This document shows positions 7,395 through 41,438 of a stretch of DNA of 64,000 nt, piece by piece. The stretch comes from Leptonemataceae bacterium (GTDB taxonomy: Bacteria > Spirochaetota > Leptospiria > Leptospirales > Leptonemataceae). How positions within the stretch are numbered: the first letter of the stretch is position 1; the number at the start of each line of letters is the position of its first letter. The notes under the pieces are model-generated. The model made no database searches and was not told where the DNA came from. It was given only the letters and a program-made list of their open reading frames with translations. The DNA is taken from the NCBI GenBank assembly GCA_965227295.1, contig OZ245742.1, positions 2,560,001 to 2,624,000 on the forward strand, read 5' to 3'. The position numbers and the translations under genes were made by a program.

Positions 7395-8219
7395 TCAGCC
7401 GACCACACCGCCGGAAGTGGGGCCGAACTTTTGCTTGTTCTTGTTATACTCTTCGCGATCGGGGTTGACCTCGCGTTCTTCGATTCGCAGCTCACGTTGC
7501 TTATCCGGGGGGAGATTGCAAAGATCATGCGACCCGGCCGGGAGTTCGACGTGAACACCTTCCCGGAATTGGAGGACGATGCGGCCGCCTGGTGAGACGA
7601 CAAGGCGATCGTCTTTCGTAGCTTCGATGAAGCCGTGCTCCTTCAGATACTCCGCCAGAGGAATACCACCGTATGTTACCCTGCCACTGAAGGCCACCAC
7701 GGTGGCTTTGACGCCGCACCAGGCCCGTTTAATTTTTGGTTTGTCCGGTTCGGTCCGCCGGATCATCCGCCCCAATTGATTCTCGCGATCGGCCTGCAAC
7801 GTATGCGTTAACTCGTGGGCCATCAATCGGCGATCCGGAGTATTCGATCGGACTTCACTACGATCAACGAATACATCCTTGCCGATGGTGAATGCCCGTG
7901 CGTCGATGCTGCGTGTGATGCGATCCACGCCCGGCCCGATGTGCACGCGCACTGCATCGAAGTTGCGGCCGAAGCGCGGTTCGAAAAATGTACGCTCCGC
8001 GGTACTGAGCGGGCGTCCGCCGTTGCGGCGCAGTTGATCAATGCGGTGTTCCGTTGCGGCCAGGACACGCTGCGGCGCCTGAGCGGCGATCACGCCGCCC
8101 GCGTTCGCGGATCGTTGTAGTTGCGCGGAGGAGAGCGGTACCGGCTCACGTTCGGTCGCGGCCTGGCGGCGCGAACTGCTCCGGGATCTGCGATGGGTGC
8201 GTACGAATCTTCCAGCCAT
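7395..8219 (-). CDS. DUF4157 (eCIS-core-like, HExxH) domain protein
   Basis: GGRPL...FEPRFGRNFDAVRVH...ARAFTIGKDVF...LMAHELTHTLQ; start uncertain (8219 or 8252). Confidence 0.8.
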   Translation of the reverse strand: MAGRFVRTHRRSRSSSRRQAATEREPVPLSSAQLQRSANAGGVIAAQAPQRVLAATEHRIDQLRRNGGRPLSTAERTFFEPRFGRNFDAVRVHIGPGVDRITRSIDARAFTIGKDVFVDRSEVRSNTPDRRLMAHELTHTLQADRENQLGRMIRRTEPDKPKIKRAWCGVKATVVAFSGRVTYGGIPLAEYLKEHGFIEATKDDRLVVSPGGRIVLQFREGVHVELPAGSHDLCNLPPDKQRELRIEEREVNPDREEYNKNKQKFGPTSGGVVG

Positions 8220-8329
8220 GCCGAATCTTACGATGGAATCAAGAGAGATCAAGCCGGCCGCCCTCGCTGTGAGTTAAGACCGTAGTTTTTTCTAAGCTCG
8301 TGTAAGATGATGAAACGATTCGCCCGTGA

Positions 8330-24800: not shown

Positions 24801-25680
24801 TGCTTATACATTCATCTTCGCGTTCATCGTCTGCATATGTTGCAGCGTGGCGCTGGCCTTCGCGGCCACCGGTCTGCGCGAAGCCCAGGACATCAGTGCG
24901 CGCCTGGACATCGTGAAGAACATCCTGCTCGTCGGCGGCTACGAACAAAAGGAACTCGATCGCATGGCCGCGGAGAGTCCGCAGCAGGTTCTGGAAATCT
25001 TCCGCAAAAACTTCGACGTCCGCCTCGTGAACGAGGACAAAGAGGAAGTGCCCCTGGAGTTTGTGAAGTCCGAGCTGAACAAGATCGGCTACCAGGACGA
25101 GCAGCTCGCCGCGATGCAGGCCTTTGAAATCGTCGACATCTTCAAAAGCAAGGTCAATCTTCTGGCGAAGGCAGCCGGTCAGTCCGTGGACGAGTACAAT
25201 CCCGGCCTCAGCCTCATCTACCTGCAGATGAGTTCGGGGGAAGGCGACGCGGAGCGAGAGGTCGTCGCTTACATTATTCCTGTCGAAGGTTACGGGCTGT
25301 GGGATATGGTCTATGCCTATCTGGCGCTTGAGGCCGACCTGGTCACAGTGAAGGATGTTGTGTTTTACTCTCATCAGGAGACGCCCGGTCTGGGCGGCGA
25401 AATCTCCACGAAGGCCTTCACCGATCAGTGGAAGGGCAAAAAGATCCTCGACGAGAACGGAGACCTTGTCAGTATCCAGGTGGTCAAGGGCGGCACGGAT
25501 GACGACAATCCCCACGGCGTCGACGGCATCAGCGGCGGCACCATCACCGGTGACAGCGTTACGAAGTTCTTGAAAGAGGACCTCGAACGCTACAACGCAT
25601 ACTTCAAGACCATCCGCGGCGGCGATAAAACCGGCGCGACGCAAGATCAGGCGGCCTTTGCCGCAGGAGAACGAAAATGA
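24787..25680 (+). CDS. nqrC: Na+-NQR subunit C
   Basis: GYGLW, ETPGLGGEI, FMN site DGISGGTIT. Confidence 0.93.
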   Translation: MQRGNAYTFIFAFIVCICCSVALAFAATGLREAQDISARLDIVKNILLVGGYEQKELDRMAAESPQQVLEIFRKNFDVRLVNEDKEEVPLEFVKSELNKIGYQDEQLAAMQAFEIVDIFKSKVNLLAKAAGQSVDEYNPGLSLIYLQMSSGEGDAEREVVAYIIPVEGYGLWDMVYAYLALEADLVTVKDVVFYSHQETPGLGGEISTKAFTDQWKGKKILDENGDLVSIQVVKGGTDDDNPHGVDGISGGTITGDSVTKFLKEDLERYNAYFKTIRGGDKTGATQDQAAFAAGERK

Positions 25681-26357
25681 GCGATACGGCAACAGTACCC
25701 GCGCCCCGGCAGGCGCAAAACGAACGCAAGCCGCTCTTCGGCAAGAAAGAGCGCTCCATCGTCCGCGATCCGTTGTGGGACAACAACCCCATCACGCTGC
25801 AGGTTCTCGGCATCTGTTCGGCCCTCGCCGTAACAACGCAGATGTCCACGACCATCGTCATGTGCCTGGCGGTGATCGCGGTGCTCTCGCTCTCGAACAC
25901 GATCGTTTCGTTTCTGCGGGACTTCATTCCGTCGAAGATTCGCATCATCGTCATGCTGGCAGTGATCTCATCGCTCGTGATCCTGGTGGACCAGATCCTT
26001 AAGGCCTACCTCTTCGAAATGTCGAAGCAGCTCTCGGTTTTCGTCGGTCTGATCATTACGAACTGCATCATCCTGGGCCGCGCCGAGGGTTTCGCCATGG
26101 CGAACAAACCCTGGCCGTCGTTCCTCGACGGAGTCGGCAACGCGTTGGGTTACTCGATCATCCTCATTCTTGTGGCCACCGGTCGCGAGATCCTGGGGAA
26201 CGGCACCTGGTTCGGCCTGGCTGTAATCCCGCAGTTTTTCTACGACATCGGTTACCAGAACATCGGCCTCATGAAGTTGCCCCCGGGCGCCTTCCTTATC
26301 GTAGGGCTTATCATCTGGGTCCAGCGTTCCATCTCGAAACAGTACGAAACGCACTAA
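25677..26357 (+). CDS. nqrD: Na+-NQR subunit D
   Basis: NNPITLQVLGICSALAVT, SVFVGLIITNCIILGRAE. Confidence 0.96.
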   Translation: MSDTATVPAPRQAQNERKPLFGKKERSIVRDPLWDNNPITLQVLGICSALAVTTQMSTTIVMCLAVIAVLSLSNTIVSFLRDFIPSKIRIIVMLAVISSLVILVDQILKAYLFEMSKQLSVFVGLIITNCIILGRAEGFAMANKPWPSFLDGVGNALGYSIILILVATGREILGNGTWFGLAVIPQFFYDIGYQNIGLMKLPPGAFLIVGLIIWVQRSISKQYETH

Positions 26358-26390
26358 TCTACGTTACCTGAATACTAAGAGATAAACCTT

Positions 26391-27002
26391 ATGAATCTCG
26401 TAAACATCGCAGTCCAATCCGTCTTTGTCGAAAACATCCTGCTGGCGTACTTCCTCGGGATGTGTTCATTCCTGGCGGTCTCCAAGAAGATCGACACCGC
26501 CGTCGGCCTCGGCTTTGCCGTGGTCTTCGTGAACGGGATCACCGCCCCGGTGAACTGGCTCATCAATCATTATCTGCTGAACGACGGCGCCCTGGCCTGG
26601 GTCGGCCTGGCCACGGTGGATCTTTCGTTCCTGCGCTTCATCACCTATATCGCGGTAATCGCGGCCATGGTGCAGCTCGTGGAGATGATCATCGACAAGT
26701 TCTCTCCGACGCTCTACGCGTCGCTGGGTATCTTTCTGCCGCTGATCGCGGTGAACTGCGCCATCCTGGGGACCTCGCTCTTCATGGATACCAAAGGCTA
26801 CAACCTGGCCGAGTCCACCGTCTTCGGCCTTTCTTCCGGCCTCGGCTGGATGCTGGCCATCGTGGCGCTGGCGGCCATTCGCACGCGCATTCGTTATTCG
26901 GACGTGCCCCCGGGCCTGCGCGGCCTCGGCATGGCGTTCATTCTCACGGGACTCATGGCGATCGGTTTCATGTGTTTCGTGGGCATCAAAATGACCGAAT
27001 GA
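26391..27002 (+). CDS. nqrE: Na+-NQR subunit E
   Basis: [34 protein letters not shown]. Confidence 0.96.
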
Positions 27003-27050
27003 CGGACACTTTCGAAACGGCCTTTTCTTAACTATTACGGAGCAAATATT

Positions 27051-28283
27051 ATGAGCGGAATCGCAATCGTAGGACTCAGTGTTGCCGTCTTCACGTTCGT
27101 GATCATGGGACTGGTGACCATCATTACCCAGGCGGAGAAGCGCCTGGTCGCCCAGGGCGACGTGAAGATCAACATCAACGGCGACGAGGAGAAGTCCATC
27201 ACGGCGCCCGCCGGATCCACACTGCTGACGACGCTCTCGAACTCCGGCCTGTATCTGCCGTCGGCCTGCGGCGGCGGCGGGACCTGCGCCATGTGCAAGT
27301 GCCAGATCTTCGACGGCGCCGGGGACATTCTGCCCACCGAAGCGGGGCACTTTACCCGCAAAGAAATCAAGGAAAACTGGCGCCTGTCGTGCCAGGTAAA
27401 GGTCAAGGGCGATCTGGAAATCGGCGTTCCGGAAGAGGTGCTCAGCATTCAGAAGTTCACCTGTACCGTGCGCAGCAATCACAACGTCGCGACGTTCATC
27501 AAAGAGCTCGTCCTGGACATCGACGACGGCAAGGAAATGGACTTCGAGGCCGGCGGTTACATTCAGATCTACGTCCCCGAGTACGACATCGACTTCAAGA
27601 ACTTCGACATCGAAAAAGAGTACCACCCGGACTGGGATCAGTTTAAGTTGTGGGACCTGAAAGCGCGCAACGACGAGGAGATCTTCCGCGCCTATTCCAT
27701 GGCGAACCACCCGGCCGAGGGCAACATCGTTATGCTGAACATCCGCATCGCCACGCCGCCGCGGGGCATGGACGTGCCTCCGGGGATTTGTTCCAGCTAC
27801 GTGTTCAATCTGAAACCCGGCGACAAAGTCGAGGTGAGCGGACCCTACGGTGAGTTCTTCGCCAAAGAAACCGAGCGGGAAATGTGCTACATCGGCGGTG
27901 GTGCCGGCATGGCCCCGTTGCGCTCGCACATCTTCGATCTTTTCCATACCAGGAAAACGAACCGCAAGGTCACCTACTGGTACGGCGCACGCTCGCTGCG
28001 GGAGATGTTCTACGAGGACGACTTCCGCAAAATCGAAAAGGAATTCGACAACTTCAAGTTCCACGTGGCGCTCTCGGACCCGCTGCCCGAGGACAACTGG
28101 GAAGGCCCCACGGGCTTCATTCACCAGGTGGTCCTGGAAAACTATCTCAAGAACCATCCCGATCCCACGGAGATCGAGTACTACCTGTGCGGCCCGCCGC
28201 TCATGCTCGACGCCGTGCAAAAAATGCTCTACGACCTGGGCGTGGAGCGCGAAATGATCGACTTCGACGACTTCGGTAGTTGA
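27051..28283 (+). CDS. nqrF: Na+-NQR subunit F
   Basis: [12 protein letters not shown] 2Fe-2S motif, [26 protein letters not shown]. Confidence 0.97.
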
Positions 28284-28305
28284 GGGAGAATAGGAATCAG
28301 GACTA

Positions 28306-28417
28306 ACACCGAGGACCGAGAGACCGAGGTTTCCTGGAAGGGCATTCTTATTAGCAAGGCCGCGCGCAAGCTATGAATGCTCTCCGTTTTCGCCTCGCAA
28401 GACTCGGTCCTCGGAGT
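28306..28417. repeat. CCGAG-armed hairpin element, copy 5 (overlaps the apbE start)
   Basis: acaccgaggaccgagagaccgag ... ctcgcaagactcggtcctcggagt. Confidence 0.75.
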
Positions 28418-29488
28418 CTATTCCTTCTTTTCCTCGCGTGCGCGTTCGCCTGCAAGCCCGCGGACGAATCGCTTACGTTGAAGGGCTACGCCCTCGGCAC
28501 CACCTATACCGTTAAGATCTACCCGCACGAAGTTAGCGAAGACGAAGCCTCGCTGCCTCCCGAAGACGAACTGCGTTCCGAAATCGAAGACGTCATTGCC
28601 GGCATGAACGCGGCCATGTCCAACTGGCATACGGACAGCGAAATCTCGCGATTCAATGCCCTGGAGGCCCCGGCAACCATCGAAATCTCGCCGGCCTTCG
28701 CGCGAGTCTTGGAAGCATCGCAGGAGATGCACCGACGTTCCGGCGGCGCTTTTGATCCGGGCCGCTCCAGGCTCTTTGATCTGTGGGGTTTCGGCGCCGA
28801 ACAAAAAGAGGACGCCGTGCGCAGCGTTCCGGACCAGGCGGACATCGAACGCCTGTTGCAAAACAGCGGCCTCGCATACGTGCGTCTGGAAATCAAACCG
28901 CATCCGGAAAATCTCGACAGTCACAGCCTCATCACGCTGCACAAAGAGCGCGACGATGCCGGGTTAAACGTGAGTGCTCTCGCGAAAGGTTACGCCGTGG
29001 ACCTGGTATTCGAGCGACTGCAGGAACACGGCGCCCGGTACATGATGGTGGAAATCGGCGGCGAGGTTCGTACCGGACCGGCGCATCCGCAGCGTGGAGG
29101 TTTTCACATCGGCATCGACGAGCCGCGGTACGACGGTCGCCGTTCGCTCTACGAGGTCCTCGAAGTTTCGGACGCGGCCGTGGCGACGAGCGGCAACTAT
29201 CGCAACTACTTTCGCGGCGACGACGGCCGGTTGTATTCGCACATCCTGGATCCCCGCACCGGTCGGCCGTCGGAGAGCGATGTCGTGTCGGCCACGGTGA
29301 TCGGCCCGGCCTGCATGATCGCCGACGCCCTGGCAACGACGTTGCTGGTGCTGAGCGAAGACGAAGGACTGGCCTTGATCGAAGCGATGCCGGAGTACGA
29401 GGCGTTGTTGTTAATCAAAGACGGCGAGAAGTTACGGGAAGTGCAAACGGCGGGGATGGCGCGGTTCAGGAATGGCTCGGGTCCGTAG
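28373..29488 (+). CDS. apbE: FAD:protein FMN transferase (lipoprotein)
   Basis: SEISRFN, AKGYAVD, VEIGGE, ATSGNYRNYF, HILDPRTG, ADALAT. Confidence 0.95.
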   Translation: MNALRFRLARLGPRSLFLLFLACAFACKPADESLTLKGYALGTTYTVKIYPHEVSEDEASLPPEDELRSEIEDVIAGMNAAMSNWHTDSEISRFNALEAPATIEISPAFARVLEASQEMHRRSGGAFDPGRSRLFDLWGFGAEQKEDAVRSVPDQADIERLLQNSGLAYVRLEIKPHPENLDSHSLITLHKERDDAGLNVSALAKGYAVDLVFERLQEHGARYMMVEIGGEVRTGPAHPQRGGFHIGIDEPRYDGRRSLYEVLEVSDAAVATSGNYRNYFRGDDGRLYSHILDPRTGRPSESDVVSATVIGPACMIADALATTLLVLSEDEGLALIEAMPEYEALLLIKDGEKLREVQTAGMARFRNGSGP

Positions 29489-29792
29489 TTCCGGTGTGCC
29501 CTGAAGCTTGAGGTAAGTGCCCGGGAGGGAAAGTTAAGGGAAGTATGGGTACGGCTGGTTCCAGCCGGCGAACGGAGGTCGTGCCGGGGGACGTGGTAAG
29601 GCGGACCGGAACGGCGTCTTCGCCGCAAGAGACGCTGCCGAAGCTGAGTCGCTCTCCCGGCGTCCGGGTCGATGTGGACAATCTTAACAAAACGAAAAGC
29701 TACAACTCCCGCGAGCCGTAGCAAAATGATTCCCTTTACAATTCCTGAGCCAGGCTCTGTAGCTTCACAGCTCCTGCCATGATTCCGAGGGC
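29489..29792 (+). ncRNA. Unrecognised structured non-coding element, copy A
   Basis: Homologous to 31989-32281 at an exact 2500-nt offset; core 29543-29630 is 77/88 identical; conserved hairpins with G-U pairs on the + strand. Confidence 0.55.
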
Positions 29793-29804
29793 TCCCCGGG
29801 ATCG

Positions 29805-30056
29805 TCACATCAACCGCGACTTTTGCAGTGCCTGCTGTAGCTTGCTGTAATGCTGCGGCTCTTCTTGTTCGGCGTCGCACTTGTTCGGATCGCCGCCGCA
29901 GATGCTGCACGATTCGTCGCCGCCGCGGGTGATGGTCCCGTTCGCGGCGAGGCCGCCGCAGGAACCCTTCACGGGCCGCCCGAACATGGCGCCGATCGCG
30001 ATGCCGGCCATGCAAATGCCGAAGAGGGCGAGGGTGAGCAGCAGAATCTCGGTCAT
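29805..30056 (-). CDS. nqrM: Na+-NQR maturation factor (DUF539)
   Basis: TM helix then KGSCGGL...CSICG...C. Confidence 0.85.
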   Translation of the reverse strand: MTEILLLTLALFGICMAGIAIGAMFGRPVKGSCGGLAANGTITRGGDESCSICGGDPNKCDAEQEEPQHYSKLQQALQKSRLM

Positions 30057-30163
30057 TCTAATAAGTTAGTAAGATCGCGCGGAAAATCAAGTCTTTTGCC
30101 GCGCCGTGCAAAAGGAGCGGGCGCCGATTTTTCGGCCGCCCGCTCCACGTTATACGCGGGATC

Positions 30164-31384
30164 TCAGTCCGGCGTTTCGCTGATCACCCCGCGACCCACG
30201 GTGCGGCCGCCCTCACGGAATGCGAAGGCGAGGCCCGCCTCGATGGCCACGGCGGTTTCCAGGTCCACATCGATCAGAATCGATTCGCCCGGGAGCGCCA
30301 TGTCGATGCCTTCCGGCAACTGCACGGAGCCGGTGACGTTCGTCGTGCGGAAGTAGAACTGCGGCCGGTAACCGTTGAAGAAGGGCGTATGTCGTCCGCC
30401 TTCCTCTTTGCCCAGAACGTAAACTTCCGCTCGAAAGAACTTACGGGCCCGCACGGAACCGGGCAGGGCCACGACCTGGCCGCGCCGCAGCGAATCTTTC
30501 TTTACACCGCGGAGCAGCAGACCCACGCTCTCGCCGGCCCGGGCCGTATCGCTTTCCTCGTGAAAGCTCTCGATGGCCGTCACCGTCGTGCGCCCGGTCT
30601 CACCGAAGCCGACGATCTCCACCTCGCGCCCGCTTTGCAAACGGCCGCGTTCCACACGACCGGTCACCACGGTGCCGCGACCCGGAATCGTAAGCACGCC
30701 TTCGATGGCCATCAGAAAGTCGCGGTCCAGGTCCCGCACGGGATCCGGCACGTGAGCTTCCAGGGCTTCGAGCAAGCGCACGATCGCGGCGAAACCCAGC
30801 TCGCTTTCCGGGGCCTCGCCGGCCGCCTCACGAACGGCGAGCAACGCCGAGCCGTAGACAATGGGCGTGTCCGCGGCGAAACCGTACTGCTCGAGCAACT
30901 CACGAATCTCTTCGCTCACGAGATCGATCAATTCCTCGCGCTCGTCCGGGTGAATCGCGTCGGCCTTGTTCAGAAAGACGACGAGATTCCGCACGCCCAC
31001 CTGACGCGCTAACAGCACATGCTCGCGAGTTTGCGGCATAGAACCGTCGTCCGCGGAAACCACCACGATGGCGGCGTCGAGGGACTGAGCACCGGCGACC
31101 ATGTTCTTTACGTAGTCGGCGTGGCCCGGGCAATCGACGTGGGCGTAGATTCTACGCGCGGTTTCGTAGCGCTGATGCGATACGTTGATCGTTACGCCCT
31201 TCGCACGTTCTTCCGGCGCCGAGTCGATGTCCTCGTAACGCACGGCGCGGTTCAGGCCGCCGTAGAGTTTCGCGGTGACCTGGGTTAGAGCGGCACTCAG
31301 CGTGGTCTTGCCGTGATCCACGTGTCCGATCGTACCCACGTTCACTCGAATCTTGTTTTCGTTTTTCAGAGCTTTGATGCTCAT
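30164..31384 (-). CDS. tuf: Elongation factor Tu paralogue (divergent, stand-alone)
   Basis: [74 protein letters not shown] before ATG 31384. Confidence 0.93.
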
Positions 31385-31445
31385 CGTTTTCACCTCGTTA
31401 TAGTTTGATCCGCCTGAGCGGATGGCGTGGGTTGTCACGGGCACG

Positions 31446-31479
31446 AAAAAACCCCCTCGCACCGGATGGTGGAGGGGGC
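31446..31479 (-). terminator. Intrinsic terminator (attenuator) in the tuf leader
   Basis: Minus-strand RNA GCCCCCUCCACC-AUCC-GGUG-C-GAGGGGG-UUUUUU, about 60 nt upstream of the tuf ATG. Confidence 0.85.
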
Positions 31480-31536
31480 TTCGCGCAGGTACTATGACGT
31501 TATGATGCTACAAACCTACAATCGCGCAAGCCCTCC
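31471..31536 (-). promoter_or_regulatory. Antiterminator hairpin of the tuf leader
   Basis: GGAGGGCUUGCGCGA (31536-31522) pairs with UGCGCGAAGCCCCCUCC (31487-31471), sequestering the terminator 5' arm. Confidence 0.75.
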
Positions 31537-31608
31537 CCGCGGGTCGCCTTGTTCCTGTTGTTCGCCGCTTATGCCGGCGAAAATCTTGTTGAAAATTCCG
31601 GAGAACAT
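31516..31608 (-). CDS. Putative tuf leader peptide (30 aa) MFSGIFNKIFAGISGEQQEQGDPRGGLARL
   Basis: ATG 31608 to TAG 31516; last codons cover the antiterminator 5' arm; no obvious Shine-Dalgarno. Confidence 0.55.
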   Translation of the reverse strand: MFSGIFNKIFAGISGEQQEQGDPRGGLARL

Positions 31609-31622
31609 CGATTAGATTTGAC

Positions 31623-31677
31623 GAAGAAAACGCGCACCTTCGTGAAACTTTTTGTGAAAATCGTGCGCGTTCTTTTC
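31623..31677. promoter_or_regulatory. Inverted repeat between divergent genes (possible operator)
   Basis: gaagaaaacgcgcac-N25-gtgcgcgttcttttc (13/15 match); spacer carries two gtgaaa direct repeats. Confidence 0.45.
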
Positions 31678-31688
31678 GGAGTAACTGC

Positions 31689-31988
31689 ATGCTGCCGCCC
31701 ACATTCATCGCTTCGCTCATTGCCATCGGCGTTTTGCTGGTGTTGATCCTCACGTACGTTCTGGTCTCGCGGGAAGTGGAACGCCGCCGCCTCGATCGAG
31801 AGCGGGCTATCGCCGCGCAGCGTAAGAAAGAGCTCCTGGCCACCGAAGTCGACGAGCCCGCCGTGCCCGCGTCCATTTCCAAAAGCGAACACCAGGAAAT
31901 GATCGAAAACGCCCAGGCCATGGTCAAAGAAGACCCGGAGCGCGCGGCGAAACTCGTGCGTCACTGGCTCGACGACGGGGATCGGTAG
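31689..31988 (+). CDS. Small membrane protein resembling the FliF C-terminal cytoplasmic tail
   Basis: One TM helix, charged linker, then AMVKEDPERAAKLVRHWL. Confidence 0.7.
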   Translation: MLPPTFIASLIAIGVLLVLILTYVLVSREVERRRLDRERAIAAQRKKELLATEVDEPAVPASISKSEHQEMIENAQAMVKEDPERAAKLVRHWLDDGDR

Positions 31989-32281
31989 ATCGAGCACGCC
32001 CCGAATCGTGGATTAAGTAGCGGCCAGTGTACATTAAGCCTTGTATAGGTACGGCTGATTCCAGCTAACGTACGGAGGTCATGCCGGGGTCCATGGTAAG
32101 GCGGACCGGAACGGCGTCCTCGCCGCAAGAAAGGCTTCGGTAACTGAGTCACAAACCAACGTCCGGGTCGATGCGGACGATGTTAGCAAAACGAAATTCC
32201 ACAACTCCCGCTCAGCTGTAGCCAAACCCACCCCTTCACCATTGCGCAACCTACCCTGTGTGTCTCACGGCAAACGGGGCG
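31989..32281 (+). ncRNA. Unrecognised structured non-coding element, copy B
   Basis: Closing stem cgccccg (31997-32003) / cggggcg (32275-32281); hairpins gctg-attc-cagc, ggtc..gacc, cgtccg-N8-cggacg; stops in all three + frames. Confidence 0.55.
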
Positions 32282-32318
32282 AACCACAGCTCTTGAACGA
32301 CCGGAAACGTTTTATTCG

Positions 32319-32470
32319 TTCGAACACGCCCCGAATCGTGGTGTAAGTGGCGGCCAGTGTACATTAAGCCTGGTATGGGTACGGCTGGTTCCAGCTAACG
32401 TACGGAGGTCATGCCGGGGTCCATGGTAAGGCGGACCGGAACGGCGTCTTCATTGCAAGAAACGTTGCGG
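32319..32470 (+). ncRNA. Unrecognised structured non-coding element, copy C (5' half; 3' half divergent)
   Basis: 129/140 identical to copy B at a 330-nt offset; lies just upstream of the vWA gene. Confidence 0.5.
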
Positions 32471-32573
32471 TGGTTCGCGGGAGCACCCGGGTCACCCGGC
32501 CCACGCTCACATAAATCGAACAAATCTCCGCTATCCGCGGTCCAATCGAGGCAATTCACCGGAGGTTTATCTC

Positions 32574-34274
32574 ATGCAATCCAATCACTCCGCGCGGCCG
32601 TCGATCCTGGCAGGTTCCGCGCTCCTGATCCTTGCGATCTTTGCGGCGTGCAATACCGCGGATCGCAGCGGCGCTGCCGAAACCCGCCGCGATCCCACGA
32701 CGGTCATTCCGTCCCGGTCCGAGCGCGCAGAATACTTTCACGGCGACGGAGTTACGCCGCAATCTGAATATGAGGCCCCCGAACCCGCGCGCAAACAAAA
32801 CGTCCAGGACGGCCAGGCCGTACCGCCCACGGGTAGTGACGAAGGCGCCCTGCCGTTCAACACCGAGACTTACGATCGTATCTACGAAAACGACTTCCTG
32901 GGCGTACACCAGAATCCGCTCAGCACGTTTTCCATCGACGTCGACACCGCGAGCTACAGCATCACCCGGCGTTTTCTGAATCAGGGCAGCACCCCGCCGC
33001 CGGATGCCGTACGCATCGAAGAACTCATCAACTACTTCAACTACGACTACGCCGGCCCGCAGGGCGACGCCGATCCGTTCGCCGTGCACACCGAGGTTTC
33101 GGCCGCGCCCTGGAATCCGGAGCATCGTCTGTTGCACGTCGGCATCCAGGCGAAGCGTTTTGAACAAAAGGATCTGCCGCCGCGAAACCTGGTCTTCCTG
33201 CTCGATGTCTCGGGGTCCATGGATGCGTCGAACAAACTGCCGTTGCTCAAACGTTCCCTGCGCCTGCTGACGGAGCAGATGAGCGAAAAAGATCGGGTGG
33301 CCATCGTGGTCTATGCGGGCGCGAGCGGGGTGGTACTTGAACCCACGCGCGGCGATCAGCAAGAGAAGATCATGGACGCGTTCGAGAAACTTTCGGCCGG
33401 CGGATCCACGAACGGCGGCGAAGGCATTGAGCTGGCGTACAAACTGGCTCGCGCTAACTTTCACCACGAGGGCATTAACCGTGTGATCCTGGCCACCGAC
33501 GGCGACTTCAACGTCGGCACCACGAATCAGGGCGATCTCATTCGGTTGATCGAAAAGGAACGCGAGAGCGGCGTTTTTTTAACGGTGCTCGGCTTCGGCA
33601 TGGGCAATTACAAGGACAGCACCATGGAAAAGCTCGCCGACAAGGGCAACGGTAACTACGCCTACATCGACACCGTTGCCGAAGCGCGGAAGACCCTCGT
33701 AAACGAAGCCGGCGGCACACTCATTCCCGTGGCGAAAGACGTGAAGCTGCAGCTGGAATTCAACCCGCGCACCGTCGCGGCCTACCGATTGATCGGTTAC
33801 GAAAACCGCCTGCTGCGCGCCGAGGATTTCAACGATGATAAGAAAGACGCCGGCGAGATCGGCGCCGGCCACAGTGTAACGGCTCTCTACGAAATCGTTC
33901 CGGCCGGCAAAGAGGTGCCCACGGGCACGGTGGACCCGCTGAAGTACCAGACCACCGGCGATGCCACCGACGCCGCGAACTCGAACGAGCTTCTGACCGT
34001 GAAGATCCGCTACAAACAACCGCAGGGCAGCACGAGTAAGTTGCTGAGCTTCGCCGTAAGTGACGGTGAAAAAAAATTAGAGGAGACTTCGGATAACTAT
34101 CGCTTCAGCGCGGCGGTGGCGGCCTACGGCATGTTGCTCCGGGACTCGAAGCATCGCGGGGGAGCCGACTACGATCTGGTGCGCAAGCTCGCCCAGGGCA
34201 GTCTGGGCGAGGACCCGCACGGATACCGGGCCGAGTTCTTACGCCTGGCAGCCATGGCGAAAGACATGCGCTGA
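32574..34274 (+). CDS. vWA domain lipoprotein, YfbK-like
   Basis: FAA-C lipobox; STFSIDVDTASY, LLDVSGSM (MIDAS), LATDGDFNVG, YRLIGYENR. Confidence 0.92.
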   Translation: MQSNHSARPSILAGSALLILAIFAACNTADRSGAAETRRDPTTVIPSRSERAEYFHGDGVTPQSEYEAPEPARKQNVQDGQAVPPTGSDEGALPFNTETYDRIYENDFLGVHQNPLSTFSIDVDTASYSITRRFLNQGSTPPPDAVRIEELINYFNYDYAGPQGDADPFAVHTEVSAAPWNPEHRLLHVGIQAKRFEQKDLPPRNLVFLLDVSGSMDASNKLPLLKRSLRLLTEQMSEKDRVAIVVYAGASGVVLEPTRGDQQEKIMDAFEKLSAGGSTNGGEGIELAYKLARANFHHEGINRVILATDGDFNVGTTNQGDLIRLIEKERESGVFLTVLGFGMGNYKDSTMEKLADKGNGNYAYIDTVAEARKTLVNEAGGTLIPVAKDVKLQLEFNPRTVAAYRLIGYENRLLRAEDFNDDKKDAGEIGAGHSVTALYEIVPAGKEVPTGTVDPLKYQTTGDATDAANSNELLTVKIRYKQPQGSTSKLLSFAVSDGEKKLEETSDNYRFSAAVAAYGMLLRDSKHRGGADYDLVRKLAQGSLGEDPHGYRAEFLRLAAMAKDMR

Positions 34275-35009: not shown

Positions 35010-35948
35010 ATGAGCACACGTAGAACGGAAAGCGAAGAGAACGATGCGCGCCGCATCCTGGTGGCCGGCGGCACCGGTTATCTGGGGCGGTACGTCCTGG
35101 CCGAGGCCCGGCGTCGCGGATGGTTCGTGCGCGCCCTGGTCCGGCCCGGCAAGAGCGAACAACTGAAAGACCTCGATGTCGACGAGATCGTTGAGGCCGA
35201 AGTGACCCGACCGGAAAGCCTGAAGGGAATTTGCAACGGCATGGACTGTGTGTTTTCATCGGTAGGTATCACGCGTCAGAAGGACGGACTGCGTTACATG
35301 GACGTGGACTACGGCGCGAACCGGAACCTGCTCGACGCTGCGATCCTGGCCGGGGTTCGGCGCTTTGTCTATGTTTCCGTGGCCATCAGCGAAGCCGTGC
35401 GTGAACTGCGCATTATTCAGGCGAAAGAGCGCTTTGTCCGCGAGTTGAATCACAGCAGCATCGACTCGGCGGTGATTCGCCCCTCGGGTTTCTTTTCGGA
35501 TATGAAGGACATCCTGGATATGGCACGCGGCGGGCGGGTCTATCTTTTCGGTGACGGTTCGGCCCGGGTGAATCCCATCCACGGCGCCGACCTGGCCGAG
35601 GTCTGTCTGGACGCCTGCGAGCCGCATAAACATGTCATGGGGGCGGCTCTACCCGTGCACGAAGAGATTCCGGTAGGCGGTCCGCAGGTGCTGTCGCAAA
35701 ACGAAATCGCCGCCGCCGCGTTTCATGCCCTGCGCCTGGACCAGGGTTCGTCGGCGGGGCGGGTGACGCATCTGCCGGCCTGGAGTGCTGCGGCGATGGT
35801 GGCGGTACTCAAACGACTGCCCGAGCGGCTGGCGGGGGCCCTCGAGTTTATCCTGGCCGCCATGACGGCGGACCTGGTGGTGCCGGCCTACGGAAAGCGG
35901 AAGCTCGCGGATTTTTACGGCGAGCAGGCTCAGCCCTTCAACTGTTGA
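35010..35948 (+). CDS. NAD(P)-binding SDR/NmrA-like oxidoreductase
   Basis: VAGGTGYLG, IRPSGFF, NPIHGADLA. Confidence 0.9.
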   Translation: MSTRRTESEENDARRILVAGGTGYLGRYVLAEARRRGWFVRALVRPGKSEQLKDLDVDEIVEAEVTRPESLKGICNGMDCVFSSVGITRQKDGLRYMDVDYGANRNLLDAAILAGVRRFVYVSVAISEAVRELRIIQAKERFVRELNHSSIDSAVIRPSGFFSDMKDILDMARGGRVYLFGDGSARVNPIHGADLAEVCLDACEPHKHVMGAALPVHEEIPVGGPQVLSQNEIAAAAFHALRLDQGSSAGRVTHLPAWSAAAMVAVLKRLPERLAGALEFILAAMTADLVVPAYGKRKLADFYGEQAQPFNC

Positions 35949-36268
35949 ATGGCCTCTTCTTCGGTTTCGCAGACTTCGAAGAAGCCGTCCAGTTTCGTGA
36001 GTTGCAGCACGTCCCGCACGATGTCATTGATTTCCACCAGGCGGAAGCCGTAACCGTTCTTCTCTAATTCTTTGCGAATGGAGATCAGCGCGCCCAGGCA
36101 GGAGGAGTCGATGTACTGAATGGCGGACATGTTCAGGATCATGCTCTTGTTCTCCCCGAACAGGCCTTCCAGAACCTTCTTGAGCTTCGGCGTTTCAGTA
36201 ATGCCCACCCGGCCCTTGATTTCGACGATCAGCACGTCGCCCTTGCGTTTGACTTTCGTATCTACCAT
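35930..36268 (-). CDS. STAS domain anti-sigma-factor antagonist
   Basis: YIDSSCLG, LTKLD.FF. Confidence 0.9.
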   Translation of the reverse strand: MVDTKVKRKGDVLIVEIKGRVGITETPKLKKVLEGLFGENKSMILNMSAIQYIDSSCLGALISIRKELEKNGYGFRLVEINDIVRDVLQLTKLDGFFEVCETEEEAIQQLKG

Positions 36269-36313
36269 AATCGCTGCGCTTCTTGCTGAAGAATCGCGCG
36301 GCGTGTTCTGCGG

Positions 36314-37189
36314 TCAAGCCGATGTTGGGGCACGCAGGTCTTCGAGAAAGGCTCCCGTTTGCATGGCCAGCTCCCCGGGCTGCTCCTCCGGGACGAAGTG
36401 GCCGGAGTCCACCCGTACCATCCGTACGTCCTGGAAACATTCCTCAAAGCCGTGGAAGTACTCGGGAATGATCGTGTTGTCCTTCTCCCCGTAGACGATG
36501 AGCGTGCGGACCGGGTTCCGCATGCCGGCGAACTTGCGCCAGCGCTTCGTATCGAAGGGGAGGGTACGATAATAATTGGCCGCCGTTTCCGGGGTATGCG
36601 GGCGGGAGTAGTCTTCGATGTAGGCCTGGACGTGGTCCTCGGGGATCGGCCGGGAGGTCTTCGAAGTGACGAGGAAGGTCTTGAGCCAGACGTCCTCGCG
36701 CCCGGTGATCAGGCCCTCGGCCAGGCCGGGGACCTGCTGAAAGGTCTGGTACCAGCTCATGTCCATGCGGCTTTCGAACATGGCTCGCCGGGCGTGCTCG
36801 TAGCCGGTCCAGTTGTTGATGATGGGAATGTTCGAAAGAACCAGGCGCCGCACCCGTTCCGGCACCAGGAAACACAGCTCCTGGGCCACGGTGCCGCCCC
36901 AGTCGTGGCCGGCCAGGGCGAAGTCGGCGTCGCCCAGCTCAAGCGTGCTCAGGATTTCCAGGATATCCCGGGCCAGTTCCTGTTTGCGGTACAGCTTCCA
37001 GTTGCGCGTGCGTTCGCTTTTGCCGAGCCCGCGCAGGTCCGGCCGGATGCAGCGCAGGCCCGGGCCCAACTGCGCAACAACATCTTCCCAGCATAACGAC
37101 GACTCCGGCCAGCCGTGCAACAACACGAGCGGAAAGCCGGAACCCGAGTCCCGCACAAAGAATGTCCCGCGGCCGGTGTGAAGATCCAT
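36314..37189 (-). CDS. Alpha/beta hydrolase (epoxide hydrolase-like)
   Basis: LLHGWPE, PDLRG.G.S, GHDWGG, GHF..EE. Confidence 0.9.
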   Translation of the reverse strand: MDLHTGRGTFFVRDSGSGFPLVLLHGWPESSLCWEDVVAQLGPGLRCIRPDLRGLGKSERTRNWKLYRKQELARDILEILSTLELGDADFALAGHDWGGTVAQELCFLVPERVRRLVLSNIPIINNWTGYEHARRAMFESRMDMSWYQTFQQVPGLAEGLITGREDVWLKTFLVTSKTSRPIPEDHVQAYIEDYSRPHTPETAANYYRTLPFDTKRWRKFAGMRNPVRTLIVYGEKDNTIIPEYFHGFEECFQDVRMVRVDSGHFVPEEQPGELAMQTGAFLEDLRAPTSA

Positions 37190-37291
37190 GAACGTCCCGG
37201 GAGAAAGAGGAGGGAATCTTAAGAATCAGCAAGAATTTTTTAACCGGAAAAAATCCTCCATTTTCCCTGGCCCGAGCCTGCGGGTCCGGTC

Positions 37292-37869
37292 TTACATGCC
37301 GTGCTCTTGCAACTTAAGCAGGGCCGCGGCCGCCGCTTTCCCGGAGAGCGCGGCGCCTTCCACTCGTGCTTCGCCGAAAGCGTCCCCGGTAAAAACGAGG
37401 CTCCCCGCGTCCTGTCCCGCACCGGCCTGCGCGACGAAGCAACGCTCCGGGTGGAGCAGCGCCGGCCGGCTGTACCGCCAGCGATGGACCTGGAAATCGC
37501 TGGCGGTTAAGTGGATCTTACCGGCATCTAAGAGCTGAAGACTCCGGGGAACAGGCGGTGTGAGCAGCAGCGTTTTGCCGGTGTGGATGTCGCCGGTTTC
37601 AGTGATTGCTTCCCGGTGATTCTGTTCGTGCCGCACGAGGCGCACACGGCAATGACAGCGCACGTCGAGTCCGTCGGCCAGATGCAGGGCGATGTGATGC
37701 ATGCCTGATTTTCCGCGATAGCGCTGATGTCCGTCCTGGCCGGGTTCCCGCGGAACGGTGGTAAAAGGTGTCCTCGCTCGAGCAGCAGGGTCGAGCGCCC
37801 CCGGTGTCGGAGTTCGTTCACCGCGATCAAGCCTGCGACACCGGCTCCGATAATCAGGACATCCACCAT
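37292..37869 (-). pseudogene. Renalase-like FAD-dependent oxidoreductase remnant with internal deletions and a frameshift
   Basis: IIGAGVAGL...LLER in one frame; HLADGLDV, LLTPPVP, HRWRYSRP, GDAF...RVEGA.LSG in another; only 578 nt. Confidence 0.8.
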
Positions 37870-37982
37870 TTCGTTGTCACAGTTTCATCGATTCCCTGTT
37901 GGAACGATAAAATTTCTGTTGGAAGTGCGGCGGAGTACTTGCCGGATTGCGCATCGCGTATTTTGATAAAAAGCGTCCAATC

Positions 37983-39134
37983 ATGAAAGAACCGCCGATT
38001 CCTGAAACCGAAAACCAACGCGTGGCCGCGCTGCAGCGCTACGACATCCTTGATTCAGAATCCGAACAGGTCTTCGATGAACTCACTGAACTCGCTTCAA
38101 AAATCTGCGACGCGCCCATCGGTCTCATCTCTTTGATCGACTCCGGCCGACAGTGGTTTAAGGCGAACGTCGGTCTCGACGGTGCCACCGAAACACCGCG
38201 GGAGCAGGCCTTCTGCGCGCACGCCATCAATGAAGACGAAACGTTCATTGTACCCGACGCCACGCAGGACGATCGTTTTTCGGACAACCCTCTGGTTACG
38301 GGAAGCCCGGACATTCGCTTCTATGCTGGTCAGCAGTTGACCACGTCGGACGGTCACAACATCGGCACGTTGTGCGTGATCGACAAAAAGCCGCGGGATC
38401 TGGACGACTTTCAAAAAGAAGCGTTGCGCATTCTCGGGGCGCAGGTCATGTCGCAAATCGAACTCCGGCGCAACTTAAAAGAGATGTCCATCATCAATCG
38501 CCGGGCCCTGGCCCTGGAAACGATTCTGCGGCGTTATACATCGAAGAGCATCTGGGAGCGCGCCGACATCAGCGTCACCCTGGGCGAAGTGGACCTGGAA
38601 GATGAAAAACTCGATTCCGCCGTCATGTTCATCGACGTGGTGTCGTTTACGAGTTTCGCCGAGGGGAACGACGCCGACGAGGTCATCGGCGTGTTGAACA
38701 TTTACTTCGATCCCATTGTCGAGATCACCGTCAACCACGGCGGCGACGTCGATAAGTTCGTCGGCGATCAGGTGTTCTGTGTCTTTCCCGACGCCGACCA
38801 GGCCGTGAAGGCCGCCCTGGAAATCCGGCGTCGCGTTCGCAATCTGAACGATCGCCGCAAGGCCTTCGGTGAGCACTGCTTTGAAGTGCGCACCGGTACG
38901 AACTACGGCCCGGTAATTCGCGGCTCCGTCGGCGCCGAGATGCGCCGGGATAACACACTCATCGGCGATACCGTAAACACGGCGGCCCGCCTGGAGAAGG
39001 CCTGCGAACCGGGGAACGTTCTCATCGCGGACAACCTTTACCGGGCCTGCAAAAATCCGCCGCCGCTCGCGCGCACGTTGCGGTTTCAGGTTCGGGGCAA
39101 AGAAGAGATCATAAAAGCTCACTACCCGCAGTGA
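37983..39134 (+). CDS. GAF domain class III adenylate/guanylate cyclase
   Basis: RQWFKA...FCAHAI...IRFYAG GAF; FIDVVSFT, DKFVGD, GDTVNTAARLE. Confidence 0.92.
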   Translation: MKEPPIPETENQRVAALQRYDILDSESEQVFDELTELASKICDAPIGLISLIDSGRQWFKANVGLDGATETPREQAFCAHAINEDETFIVPDATQDDRFSDNPLVTGSPDIRFYAGQQLTTSDGHNIGTLCVIDKKPRDLDDFQKEALRILGAQVMSQIELRRNLKEMSIINRRALALETILRRYTSKSIWERADISVTLGEVDLEDEKLDSAVMFIDVVSFTSFAEGNDADEVIGVLNIYFDPIVEITVNHGGDVDKFVGDQVFCVFPDADQAVKAALEIRRRVRNLNDRRKAFGEHCFEVRTGTNYGPVIRGSVGAEMRRDNTLIGDTVNTAARLEKACEPGNVLIADNLYRACKNPPPLARTLRFQVRGKEEIIKAHYPQ

Positions 39135-39186
39135 AAAGCTTTCACTTGACGGCTTGATCCGGGCTGTATCAAATTCTGCGATTGTT

Positions 39187-40896
39187 ATGCGTTCTGCTGA
39201 TTTTCCCCCCGACGAACCCGAACGCCTGGAGCGACTCAAGTCGTACGATATCCTCGATACGCCGCCGGAAAAGGCCTTCGACGACGTTGTGGATCTTGCC
39301 GCGCACATTTGCGAGGTGCCCATCGCGCTGGTCTCCATCGTGGACCACAGTCGGCAGTGGTTCAAGGCGCGCCGCGGTCTGGATGTTTCCGAAACGGATC
39401 GAGACATTGCGTTTTGTCCGCACGCCATGCTGCAACGCGAAGGCGTTTTTGAGATCAGCGACGCGTTTCTGGACGATCGTTTCTCCGACAATCCCCTGGT
39501 AAGCGGCGATCCGAACATTCGTTTCTACGCCGGCGCGCCCCTGGTTTCGCCGGACGGCCATGCCCTGGGCACGGTGTGCGTCATCGACCGGCGGAGCCGC
39601 AAGCTCAGCGATAAACAAAAGGAACTGCTGCAAAAACTTTCGCGCCAGGTCGTGGCCCAACTGGAACTCCGGCGACACATTACGGCGGAAGCAACCATCA
39701 AAGAAGAACTGCGCCGATCCCGGGACGAAGCTCAAGCGGCGAGCCGGGCGAAGTCCGAATTCCTGGCCACCATGTCCCACGAGATTCGGACGCCCCTCAA
39801 TGCGGTCCTGGGCGTCGCGGATCTGCTGCGCGACAGCGGATTAAGTGATGAACAAATTAAGTTAGTAAACTTGCTTCAGCGTTCCGGTGAACACTTGCTG
39901 GAATTGATCAACGACGTGCTGGATATGACGCGCATCGAAGCGGGGCACGTGGAAAGATTGCGCCGGGACTTCGATCCGGCGGATCTCGTTCGCCGGGCGG
40001 CCGAGATTTACGAAATGCGCGCCCGGGAGGCCGGGCTGGATTTCTTCTGCACGGTGGGAGACAATGTGCCGGCGACGGTGTCCGGCGATCCCGGTCGGTT
40101 GCGCCAGGTGCTCATCAATCTCGTCGGCAATGCCATTAAGTTTACGAAGCACGGCGAGGTGCGCGTGGAACTGACGCTGGAACCGGGCAAGCCGGATCAG
40201 CTCATGTTTTCCGTTCGCGATACAGGGCCGGGCGTGAGCGAGGAGTTTCGCAAGAGCATCTTCGAGCCCTTTACCCGCGCCGATACCTCCAGCACGCGTT
40301 CCACACCGGGTACCGGTCTGGGGCTCGCCATCTCCCGGCGATTGGTGGAGTTGATGGGCGGGCGCGTCGACCTGGAGAGTCGAGAAGGAGCAGGTTCGCA
40401 TTTTTATTTTCGCGTACCGGCCCTGGAAGCCCTGGGCATACCGGCAAGCGTCGACAGCGAACGCGTGCCGAAAACGGAAGATGGGTCGCGGAATGTTCTC
40501 GAGGTCCTTGTGGTGGACGATAACCCGGACAACCTGATGCTCCTGGAAGCGTACTTGAAAGGCACGCGACACCGTTGCACCTACGTCTCCAATGCCGGAG
40601 AAGCCATCCGTGTGTTCGAGGACAAAGTAAACACCGGTACCTTCGACGTGGTGTTTATGGATATCCAGATGAGCGGCATGGACGGCCTGGACGCGACCCG
40701 GGAACTGCGACGCATTGAAGCGCAGCAATTGCTACAGGGCGGCGATCCCGGCGCGCGATCACACATCTTTGCGCTCACCGCCCACGCGTTCCGCGAGGAT
40801 ATTGAGCGCAGCCTGGAAGCCGGTTGCGATGCGCACATTACCAAACCGATTTCCCGTAACGACCTGTTGGACGCTCTGCGTTCCGCGGGTGGCTGA
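39187..40896 (+). CDS. GAF-containing hybrid sensor histidine kinase/receiver
   Basis: GAF; FLATMSHEIRTPLN; NLVGNAIKFT; DTGPG; GTGLGL; VDDN...MDIQM...TKP. Confidence 0.95.
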   Translation: MRSADFPPDEPERLERLKSYDILDTPPEKAFDDVVDLAAHICEVPIALVSIVDHSRQWFKARRGLDVSETDRDIAFCPHAMLQREGVFEISDAFLDDRFSDNPLVSGDPNIRFYAGAPLVSPDGHALGTVCVIDRRSRKLSDKQKELLQKLSRQVVAQLELRRHITAEATIKEELRRSRDEAQAASRAKSEFLATMSHEIRTPLNAVLGVADLLRDSGLSDEQIKLVNLLQRSGEHLLELINDVLDMTRIEAGHVERLRRDFDPADLVRRAAEIYEMRAREAGLDFFCTVGDNVPATVSGDPGRLRQVLINLVGNAIKFTKHGEVRVELTLEPGKPDQLMFSVRDTGPGVSEEFRKSIFEPFTRADTSSTRSTPGTGLGLAISRRLVELMGGRVDLESREGAGSHFYFRVPALEALGIPASVDSERVPKTEDGSRNVLEVLVVDDNPDNLMLLEAYLKGTRHRCTYVSNAGEAIRVFEDKVNTGTFDVVFMDIQMSGMDGLDATRELRRIEAQQLLQGGDPGARSHIFALTAHAFREDIERSLEAGCDAHITKPISRNDLLDALRSAGG

Positions 40897-41063
40897 GTCC
40901 TACGACAGAAGGGGTTCAGGCTCGTTCGGGAAGGTTTCCCCGAATTAGTAAACTTTCTTAAATAATGCTTGCACGTCTGAATATATGTTCCAGCATATCA
41001 AACGTTCCGGAGGCCGTTGCCGAGGGAATTACAATACAATCGAAATCATCACTACTCAGTGTG

Positions 41064-41438
41064 ATGAGTCGAAGGGAAGCAGTGTTGCAAGTTTTGGATC
41101 CAGTAGAAACCATTCACGCCGAAGATCACAGTCGCGTAGTTTTTTATGCGGCGCGCCTGGATCCTGCCAACAGTAACATCCTGGACCGGGAGCTGCGCAA
41201 CGCCCTGAAAGAGGGGCCGGCGCATTTGATCCTGGACATGGGCCGGGTGGCATACGCGGTCTCGCCGGCGGTGAACGTCATCCTCGAAGCCCACGAACGT
41301 TGCCGGCAGAACGGTCTGCATCTGGTGCTCATTCATCTTCAGCCGCCGGTGCGGCGTATTCTCAACCTTTCGGGATTGTCTTCCGTGTTGAGCGTGCGAG
41401 AGAATCTGGAAGAAGCGCTGCAGCTGATTCGCGCCTGA
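41064..41438 (+). CDS. STAS domain protein
   Basis: RLD, LILDMGRV.Y..S, VRRILNLSGL. Confidence 0.75.
   Translation: MSRREAVLQVLDPVETIHAEDHSRVVFYAARLDPANSNILDRELRNALKEGPAHLILDMGRVAYAVSPAVNVILEAHERCRQNGLHLVLIHLQPPVRRILNLSGLSSVLSVRENLEEALQLIRA

Follow-up and report, generated by a model that had tools for sequence, protein, structure and literature searches.

The repeat and its place between genes

The DNA considered here, called the window below, is a stretch of 64,000 nucleotides (nt) from a Leptonemataceae bacterium of the order Leptospirales (assembly GCA_965227295.1, contig OZ245742.1, positions 2,560,001 to 2,624,000 of the forward strand). The window carries, next to its nqr genes and around a divergent gene for EF-Tu, three co-oriented copies of a non-coding repeat of ~320 nt, which we call A (29489-29805), B (31989-32318) and C (truncated, 32319 to ~32471/32511). 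The units occupy entire intergenic spacers, and A and B each begin right after a stop codon. C stands directly after B, head to tail, and A is 2.5 kb distant from them. When a unit is read on the plus strand, a G-rich conserved core of ~170 nt comes first, and is followed by a short hairpin, by a block that forms a terminator on the minus strand, and finally by a poorly conserved tail of 85-95 nt. The parts of the three copies are as follows.

29489..29805, no strand assigned: copy A, full unit; it takes up the entire spacer from the apbE stop (29488) to the nqrM stop (29805)
29489..29660, plus strand: core of A; G-rich on this strand; contains a 25-nt block (29595-29619) that is invariant in 3/3 copies
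29689..29722, minus strand: predicted intrinsic terminator of nqrM, in A; 10-bp hairpin (29722->29699), -15.9 kcal/mol, z = -4.4, then UUUUCGUUUUG
29723..29805, no strand assigned: tail of A, equal to the 3' untranslated region (UTR) of nqrM; weak likeness to the tail of B
31989..32318, no strand assigned: copy B, full unit; it begins immediately 3' of the stop of a 99-aa open reading frame (ORF)
32189..32221, minus strand: terminator homologue in B; 8-bp hairpin, -9.4 kcal/mol, z = -0.6, then AAUUUCGUUUUG
32222..32318, no strand assigned: tail of B, which is the leader of C
32319..32471, no strand assigned: copy C, reduced to the core; identity to B 91%; the vWA start codon follows at 63-103 nt

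The genes that border the units are listed below.

28373..29488, plus strand: apbE, final plus-strand gene of the nqr cluster, upstream of A (PF02424, E = 2.5e-77)
29805..30056, minus strand: nqrM, convergent with apbE (PF04400, E = 1e-5)
30164..31384, minus strand: divergent EF-Tu gene (Pfam), between A and B, with a strong terminator of its own at ~30150->30113
31689..31988, plus strand: 99-aa membrane-type ORF, upstream of B; one relative at 84% identity, and a likeness to DUF4381 (E = 0.033) that is below the cutoff
32574..34274, plus strand: YfbK-type vWA gene (Pfam), downstream of C

An initial annotation, made by a model from the letters alone, had described three copies here and a gapless alignment of A with B over 160 nt that resumes after a 1-nt indel, and these observations were reproduced by a repeat search, by nhmmer and by alignment. 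The repeat search returned a family of 152 nt at 29490-29641 (A), 31990-32141 (B) and 32320-32471 (C), in which A and C are 74% and 91% identical to B, respectively, and a second block of 52 nt common to A and B (29661-29712 and 32160-32211; 87%), whose 1-nt offset is the indel just mentioned. A profile built from A, B and C, when searched against the 64-kb window, gave these three matches alone, all of them on the plus strand (E = 6e-82, 5e-78 and 1e-54). The similarity of C is lost past 32471, with weak profile similarity up to 32511. The ungapped alignment of A and B holds 118 identical positions in 160, its best 88-nt window holds the claimed 77, and B and C agree at 128 positions of 140, where 129 had been counted before. 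The first 55 nt of A diverge from the B type. As to coding capacity, mismatches between A and B are divided over the codon phases as 14/15/13 (12/14/15 in the earlier count), and every one of the six frames meets a stop in at least one copy, with no frame open across A, B and C; the judgement that the element does not encode a protein is therefore upheld.

Conservation among the copies and relatives elsewhere

Conservation within the unit is not uniform. The longest identical run is 25 nt between A and B (P = 0.008) and 60 nt between B and C (P = 0.009), and the two runs overlap. Relatives outside the window were sought by a detour through protein space, in which the spurious 74-aa minus-strand ORF of A was compared with 1.84 billion representative proteins at E <= 0.001. 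Five proteins passed this threshold, and four of them (P0124, P0125, P0126 and P0128; 48-100 aa) represent related elements in translation, which map back to A, B and C by tblastn at 51-76% identity and keep the same blocks in the spurious frame, such as EDAVPV and LEPAVP. The fifth, P0127 (4023 aa, 33% identity, in five stretches), was set aside as probably low-complexity. We also considered the relatives as a protein family and rejected this, since A, B and C have stops in that frame, the frame is shifted by the 1-nt indel, and no Pfam family matches: the Pfam search on the spurious ORFs and the relatives gave nothing but CbbQ_C at E = 0.096, which is a chance match. Across the indel, P0128 and A are in a different frame from B, P0124 and P0125. 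The spurious plus-frame ORF of A finds only itself in the protein search, and a search of the ESM Atlas with P0124 gave no usable match.

The relatives also tell something about how the unit is put together. In P0124 and P0125 the core is joined to sequence like the tail of B, and the last ~55 nt of that tail are found again in these two loci together with the same junction of tail and core that connects B to C. P0126 has a partial internal duplication, with a second partial core. The truncation of C, the duplication in P0126 and the junctions in P0124 and P0125 are signs of repeat-like turnover. Because its conservation is uneven and relatives exist elsewhere, the element is more than a neutral duplicate and is under uneven constraint. 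An element of about 300 nt, non-coding and present in several copies, had been proposed and is thus confirmed, and its relatives extend beyond the window.

A terminator on the minus strand

The initial annotation had placed every conserved stretch in an RNA of the plus strand. This does not hold for the 3' conserved block of the unit, which is a hairpin with a U-tract on the minus strand: the two conserved stretches that read CAAAACGAAA and ACAACTCCCGC on the plus strand are the U-tract and the 3' arm of a minus-strand terminator, so that their assignment to plus-strand RNA is not supported. The block folds better on the minus strand in both full copies (-15.9 kcal/mol vs -9.0 on the plus strand in A, and -9.4 vs -1.1 in B), and the stem differs between A and B in two pairs (U-A to U-G, and G-U to A-U), where pairing is preserved on the minus strand only. 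A terminator is predicted on this strand in both A and B, antisense to the neighbouring plus-strand genes. For the hairpin of A, 0/200 shuffles fold as well. This hairpin lies 83 nt downstream of the nqrM stop, and A's copy is therefore the predicted terminator that ends the nqrM transcript. The copy in B is weaker, and no minus-strand gene ends there; in the minimum-energy fold of a longer minus-strand context (122 nt for A) the hairpin forms in A and not in B. Probably, the terminator copy of B has decayed or is decaying. The block of A resembles an ordinary Rho-independent terminator in its G+C-rich 10-bp hairpin and U-tract at 29689-29722 on the minus strand, placed 83 nt after a stop codon, and differs from it in being embedded in a repeated unit of which a weaker copy, in B, stands where no minus-strand gene ends.

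What do the units offer to the transcripts of the plus strand? No terminator is predicted on this strand within 29489-29805 and 31989-32573, so that transcription arriving from apbE or the 99-aa ORF could run through the units. A promoter search returned no sigma-70-like site on either strand, whether within the units or immediately ahead of them. A sequence like the site of an extracytoplasmic-function sigma factor (GAAC-N18-CGT) in the tail of B was spotted by eye only and was dropped for want of support. The tails of A and B have in common CCCTTYACMATT and CACAGCTCYTG.

Search for a conserved fold

Several hairpins had been named in the initial annotation, and in one sense they exist: they comprise 22 pairs, and 64 of the 66 cells that these pairs make across the three copies are paired. 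What could not be recovered is compensatory support for them, for 16 of the 22 pairs are invariant, four have a one-sided change to G-U on the plus strand, two have an unpaired cell, and none (0/22) has changed on both sides. Consensus folds of A, B and C (core) and of A and B (full unit) were compared with column shuffles (n = 200) in which the conservation pattern was kept. The energies are no better than those of the shuffles, with z = +0.72 (A/B/C) and -0.62 (A/B) on the plus strand and -0.25 (A/B/C) and -0.05 (A/B) on the minus strand, and the numbers of helices kept in A and B, as well as of helices with variation or covarying pairs, are not above those of the shuffles on either strand. 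Folded singly, A and B adopt different structures of unremarkable stability (z between -1.4 and +0.3 overall, whole units giving -1.2 to +0.3 and the core -0.4 to -0.8), and 3' of the invariant 25-mer the three copies share no helix. It must be added that all these tests are based on three sequences and have low power, so that their failure is weak evidence and leaves the fold unsupported rather than excluded. The claim of a structured RNA, as it had been put, does not find support in these energies, in the counts of helices and covariation, or in the two-sided changes.

As to the strand of the core, we are leaning to the plus strand. The GC skew shows more G than C on this strand in all three cores (+0.22 in A, taken over 29489-29690, and +0.10 and +0.18 in the others), and the amino acids of P0124 and P0125 indicate, with third codon positions left undefined, C->U changes in two stems, which would give U-G on the plus strand and A-C on the minus strand. 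Back-translated P0124, P0125 and P0128 are too sparse for statistics, and the wobble-compatible helices that are gained with them occur on both strands. Judged likewise from amino acids, the short hairpin after the core would not be kept in P0124.

Some structural candidates are peculiar to single copies. A canonical G-quadruplex pattern, G3-N1-G3-N8-G3-N6-G3, is present at 29523-29549 on the plus strand, in the divergent 5' part of A only, and B and C are without it. Pairings of A between 29488-29500 and the 25-mer, and between 29526-29542 and the tail of A, were discarded, as they are not kept in B. A CsrA sponge was also considered and dropped: no copy is enriched in GGA or ANGGA motifs on the plus strand.

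Search for known families and for a mobile origin

No family with which to identify the element was found. The 4227 models of Rfam 15 gave no match in the whole window at the gathering score, and a permissive search at E <= 10 over 29300-32700, 31975-32580 and 29470-29815 gave only two chance matches to small RNA (sRNA) or terminator models, namely MicL with 11.4 bits against a threshold of 56, which lies outside the element, and Ms_AS-4 with 16.3 bits against 50. ARAGORN agrees in that it finds no tRNA or tmRNA gene in the window, where Rfam has none either, and the initial view that the element is neither tRNA nor tmRNA nor another known RNA family is borne out.

The same annotation had offered as candidate origins a relic of a group II intron, a bridge RNA or a guide scaffold. 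Rfam, which holds intron models, gives no match to a group II intron or to HEARO at E <= 10 on either strand, and GUGUG, which may be compared with the GUGYG at the 5' end of such introns, is present in A only (29494-29498) and absent from B and C. A Pfam scan covered 61 ORFs of the window, 33 of which were matched and 28 not; among the 33 there is no transposase, integrase, reverse transcriptase (RT), IS110, TnpB, IscB or HNH gene. These origins are not supported. Copy B, searched by blastn in distant mode, has no match in collections of plasmids and phages. Within the window, 11-mers of the element with an identical copy elsewhere number 45, against ~29 by chance, and no such identity exceeds 13 nt. 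The sequences at the left flanks are GTAG for A and B and TTCG for C. A 12-nt inverted repeat brackets the core of C (32279-32290 and 32467-32478; 11/12 complementary). We do not regard it as a feature of the element, for by our estimate chance alone would give ~0.5 pairs of this kind in 650 nt, and nothing corresponding is present in A or B.

It had also been suggested that the copies act as a tandem cis-regulator on the vWA gene. C alone is upstream of this gene, however; B follows an ORF and A lies between convergent genes, which is not the arrangement of a riboswitch or leader, and no plus-strand terminator or expression platform was found. A scan of a genome collection with the invariant block, four positions being left open, returned at least 66 loci, and all of the matches listed are chance. 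When nhmmer was run on those 66 listed loci, nine reached E <= 1 (best 16.3 bits), and eight of the nine matches are confined to the seeded 25-45 nt; the ninth, in locus L043, is longer, with 8.8 bits and E = 0.27. A full-text search of the literature found nothing in print on the element.

How the repeat may have arisen and what it may do

We tentatively favour, as quite possible although short of probable, that the element is a lineage-restricted intergenic repeat which has multiplied by local or tandem duplication, supplies a terminator to the minus strand, and is carried by read-through in the UTRs of plus-strand transcripts. The unit has multiplied locally, giving B and the truncated C in tandem and A at 2.5 kb from them. 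Each full unit would bring along a terminator that works in one direction, and at A this would serve nqrM. In the other direction the units would be read through, A in the 3' UTR of nqr-apbE, and B and C either between the cistrons of the pair 99-aa ORF -> vWA or in a 5' leader. The terminator copy of B may be decaying for want of anything on the minus strand that requires it. The constrained core would most likely act in the RNA of the plus strand, for example as an element for protein binding, processing or stability, and would resemble transcribed repeats of the REP/BIME, BOX or ERIC type rather than possess a single defined tertiary fold.

Several points weigh against this proposal. No mobility gene was found in the window, hence there is no mechanism of spread other than recombination or duplication. 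The window also lacks recurrences of any sub-motif of the element above chance, and neither terminal inverted repeats nor target-site duplications, by which a miniature inverted-repeat transposable element is recognized, were found at the ends of the units. The copy number is that of one 3-kb cluster within 64 kb, so that a dispersal of the repeat is presumed. The four outside relatives may simply be orthologues of these loci, from one to three related genomes, and a conserved functional RNA would then be a better fit than a repeat that spreads. Four of the 22 hairpin pairs have changed on one side to G-U on the plus strand, as they would in a structured RNA of this strand, and the amino acids of P0124 and P0125 point to plus-strand G-U for two stems. 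Finally, failure in structure tests of such low power speaks only weakly for the absence of a fold.

These last points belong to the explanation that a new structured non-coding RNA is encoded on the plus strand, consisting of the 170-nt core with or without the next hairpin, having a defined fold and acting in cis (as a UTR) or in trans from several gene copies. We consider it unlikely, though far from idle. It would account for the missing Rfam family, for the patchy conservation with its invariant 25-mer, for the excess of G over C on the plus strand, for hairpins that are present in all copies (64/66 cells) with their four changes to G-U, and for the putative changes from C to U in P0124 and P0125; moreover, the related elements are still 56-76% identical in a meaningless frame, which implies high nucleotide identity. 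It is difficult, however, to reconcile a defined fold with consensus energies and counts of conserved helices or covariation that do not surpass the shuffles, with the absence of any pair changed on both sides, with minimum-energy folds that differ between A and B at unremarkable z, and with the lack of a common helix after the 25-mer. The hairpin after the core seems, from the amino acids of P0124, to be missing there, truncated and internally duplicated copies occur, and the 3' conserved block belongs to the opposite strand. A wider form of the idea, in which the core of ~170 nt is a new class of structured RNA or a platform for RNA and protein in a sparsely sampled Leptospirales-like lineage, placed in UTRs around the divergent EF-Tu gene and before the vWA gene and acting in cis or as a processed RNA, possibly together with EF-Tu, is in our opinion a doubtful one. 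At the other extreme, the copies could be neutral relics: an intergenic region including the terminator of nqrM would have been copied and then duplicated in tandem, with no function beyond the terminator of A, and, as part of the same explanation, the copying would have happened during the rearrangement that put nqrM and tuf on the minus strand. Such an origin is easily combined with the confinement of all copies to 3 kb of the window, with the truncation of C, with the weakness of the terminator copy in B and with the lack of a structure signal, but not with conservation that is significantly uneven and spares the same block in A/B and in B/C, nor with related elements elsewhere that keep the same blocks (EDAVPV and LEPAVP). 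Gene conversion could mimic the run shared by B and C, but not that shared by A and B. We take the neutral origin to be improbable.

The terminator invites still another interpretation, in which the functional strand is minus and the unit is an attenuator or riboswitch-like device in the order core -> tail -> terminator, the GAGCUGUG of the tail pairing as an anti-terminator with the 5' arm of the terminator. In the minus-strand fold of B this arm indeed pairs with the upstream GCUGUGG instead, CACAGCTCYTG is common to the tails of A and B, the terminator does read on the minus strand, and the junction between core and tail is found in C/B, P0124 and P0125. In A, however, the tail and terminator come after the coding sequence of nqrM and not after a core, and the cores of A and B are downstream of the terminator and followed by antisense coding sequence only, so that two of the three cores would regulate nothing. 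Since there is also no predicted minus-strand promoter in or next to the units, and the G-U evidence in the core favours the plus strand, we think this arrangement very unlikely. An orphan RNA module of a mobile element, that is, a fragment of a group II intron, a bridge RNA of IS110 or a guide scaffold of TnpB or IscB, seems to us the least credible of all. Class C group II introns prefer to insert next to terminators, a position which is resembled here, conserved blocks alternate with variable ones, and A opens with GUGUG-like letters at 29494-29498. But these letters are missing in B and C, there is no match to introns, to HEARO or to any other mobile-element model of Rfam at E <= 10 on either strand, no RT, IS110 DEDD recombinase, TnpB, IscB, HNH or transposase occurs among the 33 Pfam-matched ORFs (28 of 61 being unmatched), the variable blocks, in a comparison of 11-mers, have no complementarity to other loci of the window above chance, and no plasmid or phage in the collections matches.

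Comparison with known repeats and RNAs

REP/BIME, ERIC/IRU, the BOX elements of pneumococci and the Correia elements of neisseriae are transcribed intergenic repeats, some of which supply terminators or promoters. The present repeat is like them in being non-coding, in lying between genes at gene ends or inside operons, where it would be co-transcribed, in having no mobility gene of its own, in its modular arrangement of conserved and variable boxes, and in its truncated and tandem forms. The differences are that those repeats are dispersed in tens to hundreds of copies while three clustered copies are seen here in 64 kb, that the clear palindromes or terminal inverted repeats of REP and Correia elements were sought here and not found, and that REP and ERIC are shorter than the unit of ~320 nt. 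No inverted termini having been found, we do not assign the repeat to REP/BIME, BOX, ERIC or Correia. The large RNAs ROOL, GOLLD, raiA and OLE provide another comparison, since they share with the element a size class of 200-300 nt, strongly conserved blocks and a lack of coding capacity; the element differs in matching none of the 4227 Rfam models and in showing no covariation or thermodynamic signal. Qrr, RsmX and LhrC are sibling sRNA genes in tandem, and as in their case diverged copies stand in tandem with a terminator in each unit. Here, however, there is no promoter-like site, the terminator precedes the core on its own strand, and GGA is not enriched as in a CsrA sponge.

The feature is real and non-coding and carries evidence of constraint. 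A large structured RNA is not demonstrated, and part of the evidence that had been brought forward for it is a terminator of the opposite strand. If the core should be a functional RNA, a large RNA family would be added from a lineage with almost no sequenced relatives, whose EF-Tu is 62% identical to its best named match. If the element is a transcribed intergenic repeat, it would be a unit with a one-way terminator, tolerated only in the orientation that allows read-through of operons. This would be of use to annotation, for it accounts for the spurious calls of small ORFs such as P0124, P0125, P0126 and P0128.

Other features of the window

Some observations on the surrounding genes may be added. 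The 99-aa ORF and the YfbK-type vWA gene may form one operon, which would be split by the 585-nt spacer of B and C. The gene nqrM (29805-30056, minus strand) is convergent to nqrD/E/F-apbE (25677-29488, plus strand) and does not follow them on the same strand; this placement suggests a local inversion or insertion beside copy A. The EF-Tu encoded at 30164-31384 on the minus strand is unusually divergent: its identity is only 62% to the best-matching named EF-Tu (Leptospiraceae, Leptonema) and 88% to one other protein. Its gene is outside the context of ribosomal protein genes, and this points either to a paralogue or to a lineage of which very little has been sampled. Two terminator-like hairpins come in succession after its stop on the minus strand, a GC-rich one with a U-tract at ~30150->30113 and a second one at 30114->30093, which suggests that EF-Tu and nqrM are transcribed separately from each other. 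Farther away, genes like those of phages and contractile injection systems are scattered on the minus strand, namely a Peptidase_M15_3 gene (3016-3627), a gene with an eCIS core domain (7395-8252) and one for a protein of 846 aa with a phage tail collar domain (61380-63920). A signalling cluster at 35930-41438 encodes a STAS protein, a GAF-adenylate/guanylate cyclase, a GAF hybrid histidine kinase with a receiver domain, and a second STAS protein.

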